Origin: Phycisphaerae bacterium
GTDB lineage: Bacteria > Planctomycetota > Phycisphaerae > WQYP01
DNA: 64,000 nucleotides
Reading direction: 5' to 3'
Assembly: GCA_035524355.1 (NCBI GenBank)
Contig: DATKPA010000035.1
Location: 12,425-76,424 of the forward strand
In this document: piece after piece, positions 6,045 to 12,710 of the stretch
Numbering within the stretch: position 1 is the first letter of the stretch
How the letters are laid out: the number at the start of each line of letters is the position of its first letter
The notes under the pieces: model-generated
Seen by the model: the letters and a program-made list of their open reading frames with translations, nothing else
Told to the model about the DNA's origin: nothing
Databases searched by the model: none
Made by a program: the position numbers and the translations under genes

Positions 6045-6356
6045 ATGGCTGCAAAGGCCGCCACCAAGAGCGAAATCCTCACCAGCATCGCGACCACTAC
6101 GGAACTCTCCCGGAAGCAGGTTGCTTCGGTGTTTGATGCGCTTGGCGATCTGATCGGCAAGAACATCGGCAAGAAGGGCCCCGGCATCTTCGCGGTTCCC
6201 GGCCTGATGAAGATCACGGTCGTCAACAAGCCCGCGACCAAGGCTCGCAAGGGCATCAACCCGTTCACCAAGGAAGAAGTGATGTTCAAGGCGAAGCCGG
6301 CGCGTCGCGTCGTCAAGGTTCGCCCCTTGAAGGCCCTCAAGGACATGGCTAAGTAA
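6045..6356 (+). CDS. hup: HU/IHF family DNA-binding protein
   Basis: 'TKSEILTSIATTTELSRKQV...PGLMKITVVNKPATKARKGINPFTKEEVMFKAKPARRVVK'; AAAGGA SD. Confidence 0.92.
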   Translation: MAAKAATKSEILTSIATTTELSRKQVASVFDALGDLIGKNIGKKGPGIFAVPGLMKITVVNKPATKARKGINPFTKEEVMFKAKPARRVVKVRPLKALKDMAK

Positions 6357-6597: not shown

Positions 6598-9500
6598 CTA
6601 CAGCACCACGTTCAGCAGGCTGCCCCGCGCATCATACGGCTCCAGAACGATCTGATCGCCCGCGAGCTTGTCGTCCGGAATGACCGTGATGCGTTTGTTG
6701 GACTTCTCTTCGAGGTCGACGAGCGCCTTGCGCTTGCGGTTCAGGAGGAACGTCGCGACGGTGGGATAGGCGCGAAGGTCGATGCGCGTGACATCCAGCC
6801 GCGTCGCGCCGGCGGCGAGGCGCCGCATGACGTCGAGGCTCAGCGACTCGGGCGTTTTGATGAGCGCGCTGCCGTGGCAGTGCGGGCAATCCATGTAGAT
6901 GCTGCGCTTGAGCGAGGGCCGGACGCGCTGGCGGGTCAGCTCGATCATGCAGAACTGCGACATGCGGAGGACCTTGGTTTTCGCGCGATCGTTGGCGAGT
7001 TCTTCCCGCAGCAGCCGCTCGATCTCCCGCTTGTGGCGTTCTTCGCGCATGTCGATGAAGTCGATGACGATCACGCCGCCAAGGTCGCGCAGCCGGAGTT
7101 GGCGGACGACTTCCTTGAGCGCTTCCTTGTTCATGTTGAAGGCGGTGAGTTCGGCGTCGCGCTGTTCGCGGTAGCGGCCGGAGTTCACATCGATGGCGAC
7201 GAGGGCTTCGGTGGAGTCGATGACCAGCGAGCCGCCGTTGTTCAATTCCACGCGGCGCGAGTTGATCTTTTCGATTTCGCGTTCGACGCCGAATTTCTGG
7301 AACAGCGGCATCGTGCCGGTGTAAAGCTCCACGATGCCGGCCGCGCGAGGATCGACGATGGAGAGGAAGTCGCGGATGCGGCTGGCCACCTGCTCATTGT
7401 CGACGATGATGCGGTCGATTTCATCGCTGAAGACATCGCGGATCGTGCGGATGACGAGGTCGGATTCCTGGTAGAGTTCGACGGGCGCCTTGTGCGTGCG
7501 GATGCGGTTCGCGATCACCTTCCACATGCGCACGAGGTAATTCAGATCGCCCTGCAGTTCCTTCTTGGCGACATCGGTTCCGGCGGTGCGGATGATGAAG
7601 CCGAGATTCTTCGGCGGATTGAGCTCCTGCAGCGTGCGTTTCAATTCGCGGCGTTGATCGAGGTCTTCGATTTTGCGCGAGACGCCGAGCTGCGCCATGC
7701 CGGGCATCATAACGAGATAGCGTCCGGGGCAGGAGACGTAGGTTGTCAGCGTCGGGCCCTTGGTGCCGATGCCTTCCTTGGTCACCTGGACGATGACTTC
7801 CTGGCCGCGGCGCAGGCACTGCTGGATGGGCGGACGTTCGCGGCGCGGCGTCTTGCGGCCGACCTTTTCCATCGGCTTCATGTGGCCGTCGTCGAGATCC
7901 GCCTCGTCGTCGCCGAATTCGTCTTCGTCCTCGAACTCCGAGTTGTAGGCAGAGCCGAAATCGGCAGGCTCTTCCGGCTCGGCGATCGCGGCTTCCTTGG
8001 CGTTGACCGCTTCGGTCGAATCGCCCACATCCGTGTTCTCGCCGTCGTCCTCATGCGCGTGCTCTTCCGGGGCGTGCGACGGCGCATCACTGACCGCCGT
8101 GCCGTTTTCGGATGCAGCAACTTCCGCTGGCGGCGCATCGGGAGACTCCGCATGCGCTTCCACGCTGATCTCCTGCGGCTGCTCCGACTGCGACTGCGGT
8201 TGTTCTTCATAGCTGACGCCGGGCGATTCTGCATTCACGACCTGGGCGAGCGGCGGATGCTCTTCGACAGGCGCCGAGCCCGCGGGCGCTCCATTCTGCA
8301 CCGGCGTTGCGGGCGGCGGCTGGAATCCCTGCGGCGCGGGCGGGACCGGCCCCGCGGGCACACGCTGCTGCGCCGGACCGGCAGTGGCAGTGCGCCGATG
8401 CTGCTGATGCTGCGGCATGCGCGGCTGCATCTTCTTCGGGAAATACTGCGGATGCACATCCGAAATATGCAGGAAACCGTTCTTCCCAATGCCAAAATCA
8501 ATGAACGCCGCCTGGATCGACGGCTCCACGTTGGTCACGCGGCCCTTGTAAATGTTGCCGATGTGCGATTCCGTCGACGAGCGTTCCATGTACAGCTCTT
8601 CCAACAGCCCGCGACGGATCACCGCGATGCGGATCTCCTCTCCTTCCACGACGTTGATGAGCATGTCGCGGCCGGTGAGTTCCCGACGCTTTGGTTGCGG
8701 CGTCAGGCTCTCATCAATTTCGATGTCTTCCGCAAATGACGCCGGCGGCCCGATCGTCGTTTCGCCGGAGGAAGGCCCCTGCAGCGCCGAACCGCCCGGC
8801 GCCAACGCTTCCGCGGCCGCGGCAAACGGCTGCGGCGGCAACGGCTGCAAATCGTTTTGCACCGGCTCCAGCGCGGCGCCACCGTCGTTCACCGGCGGCA
8901 ATTCCGCCATCGGCTCGGCGCGGCGATGCTGCGGCGCATGTTGCGGGGCGTGACGATGCTGCTGCGGAGGACGCTGACCCTGATGCGAAGGTTGCCCCTG
9001 GGTGTGGCCCTGGTGGCGCTGGTCGGGACGCTGCTTGTCGCCCCGATGCTGCTGATGCTGCGGTTGCCCGCCCCCACCGCCGCCGCGATTCTGCTGCTGG
9101 CCGCGCTGATCGTTCCGATGCTGCTGGCCCTGGTTGTGCCGCTGCTGGGGGTGCCCCTGCTGCGGTCCGCGATGATGCGGATGCTGCGGGCGCGGCTGCT
9201 GGTGCGGAGGACGCACGTCGGGTTGCTGGGCGTCGGCTGCGGGCGTGGCCGGCATCTGCTCAACCGGCGTTGTTTCGGACGGCGGCTGCGTTTCAGGCGA
9301 GCCGGGCGTTCCGGGCACTCCGAACGGGCGCGGCGGACGGAACCCCGTCGGCCGGAATTGATGACGTGTCGCCCCCTTGGAAAAGCTCATCCGCCCGCCG
9401 GGTGCGGGACGAATCAATGCCGGACGCATGCCCACGCGCGGCGGACCGGGTGTAAACGCCGGACCTGCATGCGGATCGCTCGTCATCGATGTACCACCTT

Positions 9501-9939
9501 GCTCCGGCGGCGTTGGCTCCGGTGCCTGCGGCGCTTCCGCAATCGGCTGTGGCGGTGCCGACGGAGGAACTTCCCGCCGCGGCTCTTCCACGACGGAAGG
9601 CACTGCGGCAGGCGGAAGCTCAATCGCCGGCTCCACTGAGGCGCCGGCGTTTTCGATCGTCGCAGTCTTGGGTGCCGGCTTCCGCCGGGAACTCGCCGCA
9701 CGTGTCCGCGGCTTCTTCGCTGGCGTGGCCGGCGTTGAGGGCGCTTCCGCAGCGCCTTCCGCCGCCGCTCCGGACGAACGTGACCGCCCGCGGCCGCCGC
9801 GCGTGCCGCGACGCCGCGGTTTCTTCGCGTTGCCGCCGCTCTCGCCGCCGGCATCCGGCGCGGGGAATGGAGTGTTGGATTGATTGGAAATAGACGGATT
9901 GCCCGATTGCGGGCCGTTGGGGGAATTTTCAGCGCTAAT
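6598..9939 (-). CDS. rne: Ribonuclease E/G family endoribonuclease with long disordered N-terminus
   Basis: S1 motif 'GNIYKGRVTNVEPSIQAAFIDFGIGKNGFLHISDV' and catalytic 'ALVAIDVNSG...DLGGVIVIDFIDM'; Zn-link CPHC. The ORF track starts at GTG 9636, but the frame is open to 10029. 9939 is a proposed ATT start (see findings). Confidence 0.9.
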   Translation of the reverse strand: MSAENSPNGPQSGNPSISNQSNTPFPAPDAGGESGGNAKKPRRRGTRGGRGRSRSSGAAAEGAAEAPSTPATPAKKPRTRAASSRRKPAPKTATIENAGASVEPAIELPPAAVPSVVEEPRREVPPSAPPQPIAEAPQAPEPTPPEQGGTSMTSDPHAGPAFTPGPPRVGMRPALIRPAPGGRMSFSKGATRHQFRPTGFRPPRPFGVPGTPGSPETQPPSETTPVEQMPATPAADAQQPDVRPPHQQPRPQHPHHRGPQQGHPQQRHNQGQQHRNDQRGQQQNRGGGGGGQPQHQQHRGDKQRPDQRHQGHTQGQPSHQGQRPPQQHRHAPQHAPQHRRAEPMAELPPVNDGGAALEPVQNDLQPLPPQPFAAAAEALAPGGSALQGPSSGETTIGPPASFAEDIEIDESLTPQPKRRELTGRDMLINVVEGEEIRIAVIRRGLLEELYMERSSTESHIGNIYKGRVTNVEPSIQAAFIDFGIGKNGFLHISDVHPQYFPKKMQPRMPQHQQHRRTATAGPAQQRVPAGPVPPAPQGFQPPPATPVQNGAPAGSAPVEEHPPLAQVVNAESPGVSYEEQPQSQSEQPQEISVEAHAESPDAPPAEVAASENGTAVSDAPSHAPEEHAHEDDGENTDVGDSTEAVNAKEAAIAEPEEPADFGSAYNSEFEDEDEFGDDEADLDDGHMKPMEKVGRKTPRRERPPIQQCLRRGQEVIVQVTKEGIGTKGPTLTTYVSCPGRYLVMMPGMAQLGVSRKIEDLDQRRELKRTLQELNPPKNLGFIIRTAGTDVAKKELQGDLNYLVRMWKVIANRIRTHKAPVELYQESDLVIRTIRDVFSDEIDRIIVDNEQVASRIRDFLSIVDPRAAGIVELYTGTMPLFQKFGVEREIEKINSRRVELNNGGSLVIDSTEALVAIDVNSGRYREQRDAELTAFNMNKEALKEVVRQLRLRDLGGVIVIDFIDMREERHKREIERLLREELANDRAKTKVLRMSQFCMIELTRQRVRPSLKRSIYMDCPHCHGSALIKTPESLSLDVMRRLAAGATRLDVTRIDLRAYPTVATFLLNRKRKALVDLEEKSNKRITVIPDDKLAGDQIVLEPYDARGSLLNVVL

Positions 9940-10154
9940 GGCTACACCTTGAAGTTGTCGGATCGCGCTGCCTGACCGCTTTTCGCGTCGGCGCTGCGTA
10001 GTCCTTTTGTCTTGTCCGGGCCATGCGACTTACGTTTTTTTTCGTCGCGAGACAGGTCCGAATCTGCACATAAGTGTAACAGACCTGGCGCGCGAGTCAA
10101 AACAACACAACTTTTTCCCCAGCGATCTCTGCGACCTTTAGAGTGCGTAACCGA

Positions 10155-12470
10155 TTACCGCGTCTGCAGATGCGCCACCACCAGCCGAATCTGCTCGTAG
10201 GGCACCGTCTCATTCAACGCCAAAAAAATCGGCTTCAACCGCTCCCCCCCCACCTGCCGCATCACCTGATGCACCTGATCGTACGTCCCCTGCGGCACCC
10301 ATGCCCCGATCGACGCCGGACGCTCCGCCAGGATGAACTCCGCCAAATACTCGTTTGTCGTCGAGCGCGCCCGCCCAATCGCCTGCGACACCTCCTCCAC
10401 CGTCGCCCCCTGCCGGAACATCTGAAATGCCCGGGACTTCTCCGGGTTCACCCGCGTCCCGCCTGTGCCCCCCCCACCCATCGGCCGCACCGGCTCCGGC
10501 GCCTTCGGCGGCGCTGTCATCTGATCCGTCGTGAGCCCCTTCGCCTTGCAATGATCCGCAATGAACGGCACAAACCTGGACCCCAGGTCCTTCAGCTTGT
10601 TTTCCCCGATCCCGTACACCAGCCGGAAATTCTGCATCGTCGTCGGACGCATCCGGGCCATCTCCCGCAGCGTTGCATCCGAGAAAATCACGTACGGCGG
10701 CACCCCGCGTTCCCCCGCGATCTGCTTCCGCAACCCGCGCAATGCCTCGAACAGCTCGTGATCCACGCCCTGCCACGAAATCTCCTCGCCGCGCGTCTTG
10801 CGAGCCTCCGTCGCGGACTTCCGCACGATCTGCACCAGCCGCACGGGCTTCTGCCCCTTCATCACGGCCAGGGAATCGCGCGAGAACTTCACGATCGGCA
10901 CGCTGCGCCCGGACGAGAGCTGCAGATTTTCCTGCGTCAGCGCCCCCTGCCCGATCAACTGGTGGATGAAATCGCGCAGTTCCGTCTCCGAATGTCCGGA
11001 CAAGAGCCCGTACGTCGAAAGCTTGTCGTGCCCGAGTTGTCGGATACGGTCGGTGTTGGCCCCGCGCAGAATCGAGACAATATGCCCGACGCCGAAGCGC
11101 TGATCCGTCCGTGCGATGGCGGAGAGAATTTTCTGCGCAATCACCCCCGCTCCGTCCACGCTTGTCGTATCGCCGAGGCAATGATCGCACGCCCCGCATC
11201 CCGCGGCCGTTTCGCCTCCCGGCCACTCGTATTTCTGGCCGAAATATTCCACCAGTGCCTGATGCCGGCATGTCGCGCCGCGAGCGAACCGATCCATGTC
11301 GTCGATGTGCTTCAGCGCTGAAGGAATAAAATCCGCCGCCACGGGCGTTCCCGCGTTCTCCGCCTCCGCCGCCGATTTTTCGATCAGCATCCGCCAGGTC
11401 ATCGCATCCTGCCCCGAATGCAGCAGCACGCACTCCGCCTCCAGCCCGTCGCGCCCGGCACGCCCCGTCTCCTGCTGATATGCCTCGATCGACTTGGGCA
11501 TTCCTGTGTGCAGCACAAAGCGAATGTTCGACCGGTCGATGCCCATGCCGAACGCGATCGTCGCCACGATCAGGTCCGCCTCTTCCTCGATAAACGCCTC
11601 CTGCGCCTTCCGCCGCTGGTCCGGCGTCATGCCCGCGTGATACCCGATCGCCTTCCGCCCCAGGGATTGCGTTGCATTGAGCGTCGCCGTGATTTCGTCG
11701 ACATCCTTCCGCCGGAGGCAGTAAATAATCCCCGCCTCATTCTTGTGCCGGTCGAGCACCTCGCCGATCTGCGCGAACAAATCCCGCCGCGGCAGAATCC
11801 GATACGTCAGATTCGGCCGATCGAAATTACCCACCAACAGTTCCGAATCCACCAGGGCCAACTGTTCGGCAATATCGCTCCGCACCTGCTCCGTCGCCGT
11901 CGCCGTGAAGGCATGAATCGCGCACTCCGGGAACATCTGCTTCAGATTCGCCAGTTGCCGATACTCCGGCCGAAAATCGTGGCCCCAGTGGCTGATGCAG
12001 TGGGCCTCATCAATCGCAAAGGTCCGCACGCCCGCCTCGCGCAGCATGTTTCGCAACGACTCCCCCCCACCGATCAACCGCTCCGGCGACATGAACAGCA
12101 GATGCAGATTCCCCGCCCGCAAATCACTCCCGACCTGCCGCCGCTCGTCGGGACTCAGCGACGAATCCATCTGCGCCGCCGCCACCCCCAGCTCGCGCAA
12201 CGAATCCACCTGATCCTTCATCAACGCAATCAGCGGCGACACCACCACCGTCGGCCCGCCCCCATTCTGCGACAAATACAACGCCGGCGCCTGATAACAC
12301 AGCGACTTCCCCCCACCGGTCGGCAACACCACCACCGAATCCCGCCGCTCCAGCATCGCCCGCATCGCCGGCTCCTGCAGCGGCCGTAGCGTCCCATACC
12401 CCCACGTCTTCTGTATCAACTGAAGCAGAGAATCCAACGCTGGATCCTGCGCCTCCGCAGCGGTCGTCAT
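10155..12470 (-). CDS. recQ: ATP-dependent DNA helicase RecQ (with RQC, HRDC and C-terminal HTH)
   Basis: 'LPTGGGKSLCYQ', 'IDEAHCISHWGHDFRPEY', 'QETGRAGRDG', Zn-binding CGACDHC, HRDC 'LRGLRKQIAGERGVPPYVIFSD'. Start ATG 12470 with GGAG SD. Confidence 0.95.
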   Translation of the reverse strand: MTTAAEAQDPALDSLLQLIQKTWGYGTLRPLQEPAMRAMLERRDSVVVLPTGGGKSLCYQAPALYLSQNGGGPTVVVSPLIALMKDQVDSLRELGVAAAQMDSSLSPDERRQVGSDLRAGNLHLLFMSPERLIGGGESLRNMLREAGVRTFAIDEAHCISHWGHDFRPEYRQLANLKQMFPECAIHAFTATATEQVRSDIAEQLALVDSELLVGNFDRPNLTYRILPRRDLFAQIGEVLDRHKNEAGIIYCLRRKDVDEITATLNATQSLGRKAIGYHAGMTPDQRRKAQEAFIEEEADLIVATIAFGMGIDRSNIRFVLHTGMPKSIEAYQQETGRAGRDGLEAECVLLHSGQDAMTWRMLIEKSAAEAENAGTPVAADFIPSALKHIDDMDRFARGATCRHQALVEYFGQKYEWPGGETAAGCGACDHCLGDTTSVDGAGVIAQKILSAIARTDQRFGVGHIVSILRGANTDRIRQLGHDKLSTYGLLSGHSETELRDFIHQLIGQGALTQENLQLSSGRSVPIVKFSRDSLAVMKGQKPVRLVQIVRKSATEARKTRGEEISWQGVDHELFEALRGLRKQIAGERGVPPYVIFSDATLREMARMRPTTMQNFRLVYGIGENKLKDLGSRFVPFIADHCKAKGLTTDQMTAPPKAPEPVRPMGGGGTGGTRVNPEKSRAFQMFRQGATVEEVSQAIGRARSTTNEYLAEFILAERPASIGAWVPQGTYDQVHQVMRQVGGERLKPIFLALNETVPYEQIRLVVAHLQTR

Positions 12471-12578
12471 ATGGCTCTCCGGGTGCCCGAACGCCCCCAA
12501 CTCTATCCAAACCCCCGCATTTTTTCGATTCAAAATCCGGAAAACCCGATGAACCCCCACTCCTACTCCACCGACGCT

Positions 12579-12613
12579 CGCCGCCTCGGGCGGCGCGGGG
12601 CCAATGTGCTCTC
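12579..12613. repeat. REP-like hairpin, family A copy 1
   Basis: CGCCGCC-TCG-GGCGGCG-CGGGGCCAATGTGCTCTC; second copy at 14597-14630. Confidence 0.6.
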
Positions 12614-12710
12614 GACAAACAATTGTGCCCTCACCAACGCTTGCGACGTCGCGGCGATCGTCGCGCGCAGCCCCGCCCCCCCTCCCCCCCCCGACACGTT
12701 CCAAATCGTC

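Follow-up and report, generated by a model that had tools for sequence, protein, structure and literature searches.

AUU is well documented as an initiation codon in infC, pcnB and a small number of further genes. In Escherichia coli, IF3, the product of infC, itself acts against AUU starts and so regulates its own synthesis, and pcnB, encoding poly(A) polymerase I, an enzyme of RNA metabolism that is toxic when overproduced, is held low by its AUU start. In many bacteria the rates of mRNA decay and RNA processing depend on RNase E, an enzyme held under tight dosage control. So far this control is understood mainly from E. coli, in which RNase E cleaves the leader of its own mRNA and rne starts at AUG. 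Here we analyse the rne gene of a Phycisphaerae bacterium, located on the minus strand of a 64,000-nucleotide stretch of contig DATKPA010000035.1 (called the window; positions refer to it). Comparison with related genomes strongly supports a translation start at an ATT codon, position 9939–9937, behind the Shine–Dalgarno sequence AAGGTG.

The control of pcnB has been discussed (PMC3561954, PMC2939334), and the weakness of AUU, AUA and AUC starts has been measured in E. coli (PMC5499595, bioRxiv 10.1101/063800). In ebpA of Enterococcus faecalis a rare ATT start lowers expression, and the ATG annotated further downstream had been incorrect (PMC4447247); ebpA is a pilus gene of a Firmicute and was studied experimentally, whereas the rne case is comparative only. 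No report of an AUU or AUC start in rne was found in the full-text literature searched, a limited set.

The rne locus shares with E. coli infC a near-cognate AUU behind a good Shine–Dalgarno sequence, a long conservation and the character of a dosage-sensitive housekeeping gene. It differs from infC in that start-codon selection is not influenced by RNase E, which would make any link with IF3 one-way, and in that the third base of the rne codon drifts among T, C and A in a family where infC always has ATT. The closest functional analogy is pcnB, where a weak start permanently limits the synthesis of an RNA-decay factor, although the protein family is another one and the weak rne start is kept across a Phycisphaerae family, including as AUC and AUA. 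The E. coli rne 5′ untranslated region (UTR; Rfam rne5, hairpins hp2 and hp3) is also a long, structured and conserved leader. The leader described here has about 127 nt and two hairpins with compensatory changes, but a search of Rfam with positions 9700–10250 gave no family match at E ≤ 1, rne5 included, and the planctomycete leader is structured in its own way.

Gene Structure and Reading Frame of rne

The gene belongs to the RNase E/G family and ends with the stop codon at 6600–6598. Its product matched Pfam RNase_E_G (PF10150, E = 1.5e-96) over the whole 270-position model, the thioredoxin-like small domain PF20833 (E = 1.7e-19) and, over its first half only, the S1 domain (PF00575, E = 7.7e-5), this last match being partial because an insertion interrupts the domain. 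The S1, catalytic and C-terminal small (thioredoxin-like) domains were all present. The insertion splitting S1 was long, variable, acidic and disordered (window ~7870–8460, minus strand; columns 650–870 of the protein alignment) and was bounded by ...HISDVHPQYFP and HMKPMEKVGRKTPR. Its length was about 190 residues in the window, compared to some 40–60 in most other genera.

Upstream, the rne frame was closed by an in-frame TAA at 10032–10030, and the next ATG, GTG or TTG was the GTG at 9636–9634, the default of gene callers (1012 aa), which we reject as the true start. The 131 codons in between (10029–9637) were open and free of canonical starts, as an earlier note on this DNA had seen. The same note had correctly placed an ATT at 9939–9937, 5 nt (tagcc) downstream of AAGGTG (9950–9945). 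It had taken the extension of the gene to be about 130 codons; this figure holds for the open frame, and the translated part would be the 101 codons from ATT 9939 to GTG 9636, the 30 codons at 10029–9940 belonging to the 5′ UTR. From frame reading and Pfam domains, the proposed coding sequence covers 6598–9939 (minus strand, 1113 codons, stop at 6600–6598), and its product has 1113 residues compared to the 1012 aa counted from the default GTG.

The N-terminal 440 residues or so form a disordered extension rich in Pro, Ala, Gly, Gln and Arg. It contains the Arg/Gly-rich motif KKPRRRGTRGGRGRSRSS (9772–9825, residues 39–56 from ATT), the basic motif to which the earlier note had drawn attention. 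This block, of the RRRRGGRGRGR type, was aligned in all 13 sequences compared, with R44, G48 and R50 invariant, and is probably RNA-binding. A second motif, FTPGPPRVGMRP...RMSFSKGATRHQFRPTG (9322–9456, minus strand), had invariant R183, S185, F186, R192, F195, R196 and P197. It was common to all the genera of the family in the form PG..R.V.RA.PG...H.GRRSFGG..R.RHQFRPSG and had no Pfam match.

Conservation of the Proposed Initiation Region

The comparison covered 36 species from 13 genera of one Phycisphaerae family, all represented by metagenome-assembled genomes. The window's genome is called G000 and G001 is a sister species of the same genus, g1. The start codon of G015 was scored by eye. 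G004 was left out of the counts (its rne is split and the N-terminal motif was not matched by the regular expression used), the region was absent at contig ends in G005, G013, G033 and G046, and G012 had only the 3′ part of rne at a contig start. In a six-frame search, G001 matched the whole extended rne frame (residues 1–1143) with 77% identity and no stop, and the other genera matched most of it.

The codon aligned to the ATT was ATC in 22 species, ATT in 12 and ATA in two (ATH collectively); ATG, GTG and TTG never occurred there, and GAGG or AAGG always preceded it. The earlier note had proposed aligning the rne 5′ regions of relatives in search of a conserved ATT, and an isoleucine codon of this kind was thus recovered in all 36 species. 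Every genus of the family showed two features, the Arg/Gly-rich block and, 39–62 codons before it, an Ile codon located behind (T)GAGG(T/G/C) and a 6-nt spacer. An information profile was calculated without gaps for 12 genus representatives anchored on ATH, from position −40 to +29. Two blocks stood out, the Shine–Dalgarno sequence GAGG/AAGG at −11 to −8 (1.19, 2.0, 1.59 and 2.0 bits) and AT[C/T/A]A at 0 to +3 (2.0, 2.0, 1.08 and 2.0 bits). Outside these, only positions −30 and +27 exceeded 1 bit (1.02 each) and the rest of the span stayed below 1 bit. Since the conserved island is confined to these two blocks, it marks a ribosome-binding site and not a conserved peptide. In the window the Shine–Dalgarno sequence occupies 9945–9950 and the proposed initiation codon 9937–9939 (minus strand), a near-cognate codon at the proper distance and conserved in relatives, as expected of a weak start of the infC/pcnB type.

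In 30 of 35 species, entry into the frame from upstream was blocked by an in-frame stop 1–8 codons before ATH, most often the TGA contained in TGAGG; in G043 an in-frame TAA directly adjoined the ATT. The codons between this stop and ATH were variable and free of start codons, with two exceptions, a TTG in genus g3 that is not conserved (G048 has TAG) and, in G040, an ATG. In the clade of the window the frame is open upstream of the ATT, yet substitutions there were not periodic and the spacing to the upstream ATG was not a multiple of three. A T at position −12, which makes the in-frame TGA before GAGG, was kept in nine genera (0.81 bit; for example L008, L011, L012, L015, L017, L019 and L023), and the genera lacking it had another in-frame stop (TAA) within five codons. 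Since this T adds no pairing with the usual anti-Shine–Dalgarno sequence, selection may act on the stop that it creates, which would keep ribosomes from entering in frame from upstream. Read-through of the in-frame TGA was considered and rejected, as more in-frame stops and no start codons were found further upstream.

No canonical start occurred between the upstream stop and the Arg-rich motif in six species of four genera (G000, G002, G034, G036, G016 and G045), and three further species had none between ATH and the motif. Elsewhere, the canonical starts downstream of ATH were at non-homologous positions across the family and none had a Shine–Dalgarno sequence. The GTG at 9636 lies downstream of the conserved Arg-rich motif and is preceded by gccggcgcctcaGTG, in which no Shine–Dalgarno sequence is visible. 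Its site is not a start codon in G001, where the first canonical codon is at +154 after the ATT. Public gene calls for the relatives began at non-homologous positions and gave proteins of 950–1212 aa, some without the Arg-rich motif and others with added leader-encoded residues. This scatter is expected if the non-canonical start was missed.

The rne of G004 (L004, G004:C2:619300-622673) was split over two frames, the N-terminal and catalytic parts overlapping by 4 nt. This genome is in only 10 contigs, and the split is therefore probably a long-read indel error and not a real frameshift.

Substitution Patterns Across the Proposed Start

Among the 99 codons aligned between G000 and G001 after the ATT, the differences were distributed 28/16/55 over the three codon positions, with a ratio of non-synonymous to synonymous substitution rates (dN/dS) of 0.19. 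From ATH onward, a pair of species of genus g2 showed 9/3/29 differences (dN/dS 0.15) and a pair of genus g3 showed 7/6/27 (dN/dS 0.15). In the 90 nt upstream of the ATT the distribution between G000 and G001 was 5/4/4, with no codon periodicity. On these patterns the coding signature begins at ATH, and the 100 codons after the ATT (9637–9936, minus strand), which any gene call limited to ATG, GTG and TTG would lose, are under purifying selection as protein. Coding conservation was in this way found upstream of every canonical start. The GC content by codon position was also tried in the window for locating the coding onset and gave no information between 9900 and 9600, where all three positions are GC-rich owing to the abundance of Arg, Gly, Ala and Pro.

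infC as an Internal Control

As a positive control, infC was located in the window's genome and in 19 relatives. Every family member showed GGAG, 7–8 nt and ATT AGC CAG CAC, giving (M)SQHGLRCNEQIRI, with a short N-terminus before the conserved NEQIR block. In the window's genome the ATT start of infC is at L101:1486-1488 (G000:C83), and the family relatives are L133–L144. The rne site of the window shares this anatomy, including the ATT AGC. As the infC signature was found, the method recovers a known non-canonical start in the same genomes. In more distant Phycisphaerae, ATT, ATC or ATA candidates were seen at the equivalent place of infC.

The suggestion of non-canonical initiation at the ATT made in the earlier note is strongly supported by this ensemble, ATH behind a Shine–Dalgarno sequence in 36 species, dN/dS values of 0.15–0.19 and the infC control.

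Predicted Promoter and Structured Leader

A sigma-70-type promoter, TTGACT-16 nt-TACACT with a TG before the −10 box, was predicted at 10073–10100 (minus strand; one found compared to 0.1 expected). The similarity between G000 and G001 started abruptly, exactly at the −35 box, and the TACACT box was also present in G010, G017 and L145. Transcription would start near 10066 and the leader would measure about 127 nt. The rne leader was more conserved than the coding region which follows, without codon periodicity.

A consensus fold was obtained from five leader sequences of three genera. Hairpin 1, at the 5′ terminus (10015–10062, minus strand), begins 3–4 nt after the predicted transcription start and holds in its 3′ arm the conserved CGCAUGG, with the ATG at 10024–10022. 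It showed compensatory changes from A-U to G-C (columns 24/41), from U-A to C-G (7/54) and from G-C to A-U. Hairpin 2 (~9966–9998, minus strand) has a GCAGCGCCG ... GGCAGC frame and a variable inner stem, the sequence of which differs between genera while pairing is mostly kept. Minimum free energy folding of the leader only gave z = +0.73, no better than shuffled sequences, and support for the hairpins comes from the comparative fold only. A small stem formed by GGUGU with codons after the AUU was too weak to be claimed. The leader hairpins may function as the element through which RNase E exerts feedback in this clade.

The Upstream ATG and Its Open Reading Frame

The ATG at 10024 opens an upstream open reading frame (uORF) of 29 codons, MARTRQKDYAAPTRKAVRQRDPTTSRCSH, which ends in a TAG at 9937–9935 (9935–10024, minus strand). 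As the earlier note had described, this TAG overlaps the ATT in the form ATTAG. An ATG-started uORF of this type was found only in G000 and G001. In G010 a GTG-started ORF ends in ATTAA and in G017 an ATTAG stop is present with no start codon in frame; the other nine genera, in which a conserved uORF was sought, had no comparable ORF. The ATG itself (CGCATGG) was kept in seven relatives, at distances of 85, 85, 95, 99, 99, 82 and 78 nt from the ATT, so that, from one genus to another, all three frames relative to rne are represented. Nine genera lacked it and carried an in-frame stop 1–8 codons before ATH. The uORF had no Shine–Dalgarno sequence, and its peptide differed between G000 and G001 by seven non-synonymous and two synonymous codon differences (4/5/4 nucleotide differences by codon position). 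We judge the uORF incidental, apparently a by-product of the conserved RNA structure, with a small probability left for a coupling effect specific to the genus.

Discussion

Three other explanations of the locus were weighed. In the first, GTG 9636 (or ATG 9486), as the earliest canonical codon, would be the start, and the sequence before it a long 5′ UTR left open by chance. Long open frames are indeed common in GC-rich DNA, the codon-position GC is uninformative at 9900–9600, and gene callers do pick such starts in some relatives (P0003, for example, begins MSTDPHAG). This is nevertheless very unlikely given the coding pattern of the segment between the ATT and GTG 9636 (28/16/55, dN/dS 0.19), the Arg/Gly-rich motif kept upstream of that GTG in all 13 aligned genera, and the GTG itself, which lacks a Shine–Dalgarno sequence and is not a start in G001, canonical starts being non-homologous across the family.

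The two remaining explanations, both raised in the earlier note, involve the ATG in hairpin 1. Ribosomes terminating on the uORF at AUUAG could be handed over to the weak start, a coupling that would set RNase E output in the genus in addition to initiation at the ATT. The ATTAG overlap and the 29-codon uORF occur in both species of the genus, and G010 and G017 have similar overlaps at their starts. We regard this as improbable, as the uORF lacks a Shine–Dalgarno sequence and begins inside the conserved hairpin 1, in the 3′ arm, its peptide shows neither purifying selection nor codon periodicity, G017 has no start in the frame, nine genera have no such ORF, and RNA structure accounts for the conservation of the region. 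The overlap with an ATG uORF is limited to genus g1, and coupled initiation as a general property of the gene was not retained. Alternatively, rne could start at ATG 10024 itself, the two frames being joined by a programmed frameshift or by an assembly indel. In favour of this, the ATG is kept in seven relatives, and gene callers use it in genus g17 and L146, where it shares the rne frame. Its distance to the ATT is, however, unconstrained in length (78–99 nt, all three frames), leaving no fixed frame relation, the substitutions in the interval (5/4/4) are not periodic, and the nine genera without it have in-frame stops just before ATH, most genera lacking an upstream ORF altogether; slippery sites were not searched separately. 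An indel artefact is disfavoured by the two independent assemblies, G000 and G001, since both show the 85-nt spacing. Such a joining of frames is scarcely credible, and the frameshifting proposed earlier is not supported at this locus.

Several observations weigh against initiation at ATH. In all ten sampled g3 species ATH is followed three codons later by an ATG, about 16 nt from GAGG, and in L145 by one two codons later, 11 nt from AGGTG; in these the later ATG could be the real start and ATH a relic. In g17 and L146 an extended product from the in-frame hairpin ATG is possible. The three ATH codons are, besides, all the codons that Ile has, and third-base variation alone cannot tell a start from a conserved Ile, so that the argument for a start rests on the upstream stops. 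The genomes compared are related metagenome-assembled genomes and not independent samples, and the throttling of expression by the start is something we only infer. With these points taken into account, we give the whole explanation, made of the promoter, the structured leader, the AUU start, a 1113-residue RNase E and weak-start control, a probability of about 0.8.

We propose the following model for the expression of rne. The mRNA would be transcribed from the promoter at 10100–10073 with its structured leader of about 127 nt, and AAGGUG would place the AUU, 5 nt downstream, in the P site. This part follows from the sequence comparison, which shows where the start lies and that its third base is never G. 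By analogy with infC and pcnB, the AUU would pair imperfectly with the initiator tRNA and be discriminated against by IF3, which would keep RNase E synthesis low and may tie it inversely to IF3 activity. With few ribosomes on it, the rne mRNA would remain open to attack by RNase E and hence to feedback control. The weak start thus probably throttles RNase E synthesis, as in the systems it resembles. ATG, which is one transversion away from ATT and ATC, never appears at the site despite several third-base changes. This pattern, with T, C or A and never G across the family, points to selection maintaining the weakness of the start.

In sister Phycisphaerae lineages with a long Lys/Arg-rich N-terminus, rne starts were assigned by eye from the Shine–Dalgarno context. 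Most were a conserved TTG (11 loci; L-A-K/D...; L042, L048, L063, L069, L073–L075, L077, L081, L086 and L094) or a GTG (four; L070, L091, L093 and L096) behind AAAGGA or GAGG, and about six were ATG. Short-N-terminus rne genes (Tepidisphaeraceae and others) start at ATG, in the form M(A/S/P)KEMLINV. The starts in the class suggest a preference, or selection, for weak rne starts in Phycisphaerae. A bolder proposal, which we put forward as tentative, is that RNase E is regulated throughout Phycisphaerae by weak initiation favoured by selection, as AUU, AUC or AUA in this family and mostly as UUG or GUG in the long-N-terminus sister lineages, with an inverse coupling to IF3 activity and leader-based feedback by RNase E in addition.

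The upstream neighbour of rne is a recQ-type helicase gene on the same strand (10155–12704, minus strand, 849 aa), and a convergent gene for an HU-like DNA-binding protein (6045–6356, plus strand, 103 aa) is located downstream. The upstream neighbour is not the same in the sister species, the similarity between G000 and G001 starting only at the rne promoter.

One practical consequence concerns annotation. Gene finders restricted to ATG, GTG and TTG cut about 100 residues from these proteins or add spurious leader-encoded ones, and the public RNase E entries of the family therefore have non-homologous N-termini. For the biology of the family, rne would be a further weak start of the infC/pcnB type, new for this gene and present family-wide, including as AUC and AUA, and would add a layer of translational control to RNase E. 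It also provides a naturally occurring case in which the effect of IF3-dependent start-codon discrimination on RNA turnover can be studied. If the broader proposal is true, the main mRNA-decay enzyme would be tied to the state of the translation apparatus, and initiation fidelity would be linked to global RNA turnover, a connection not described for rne.

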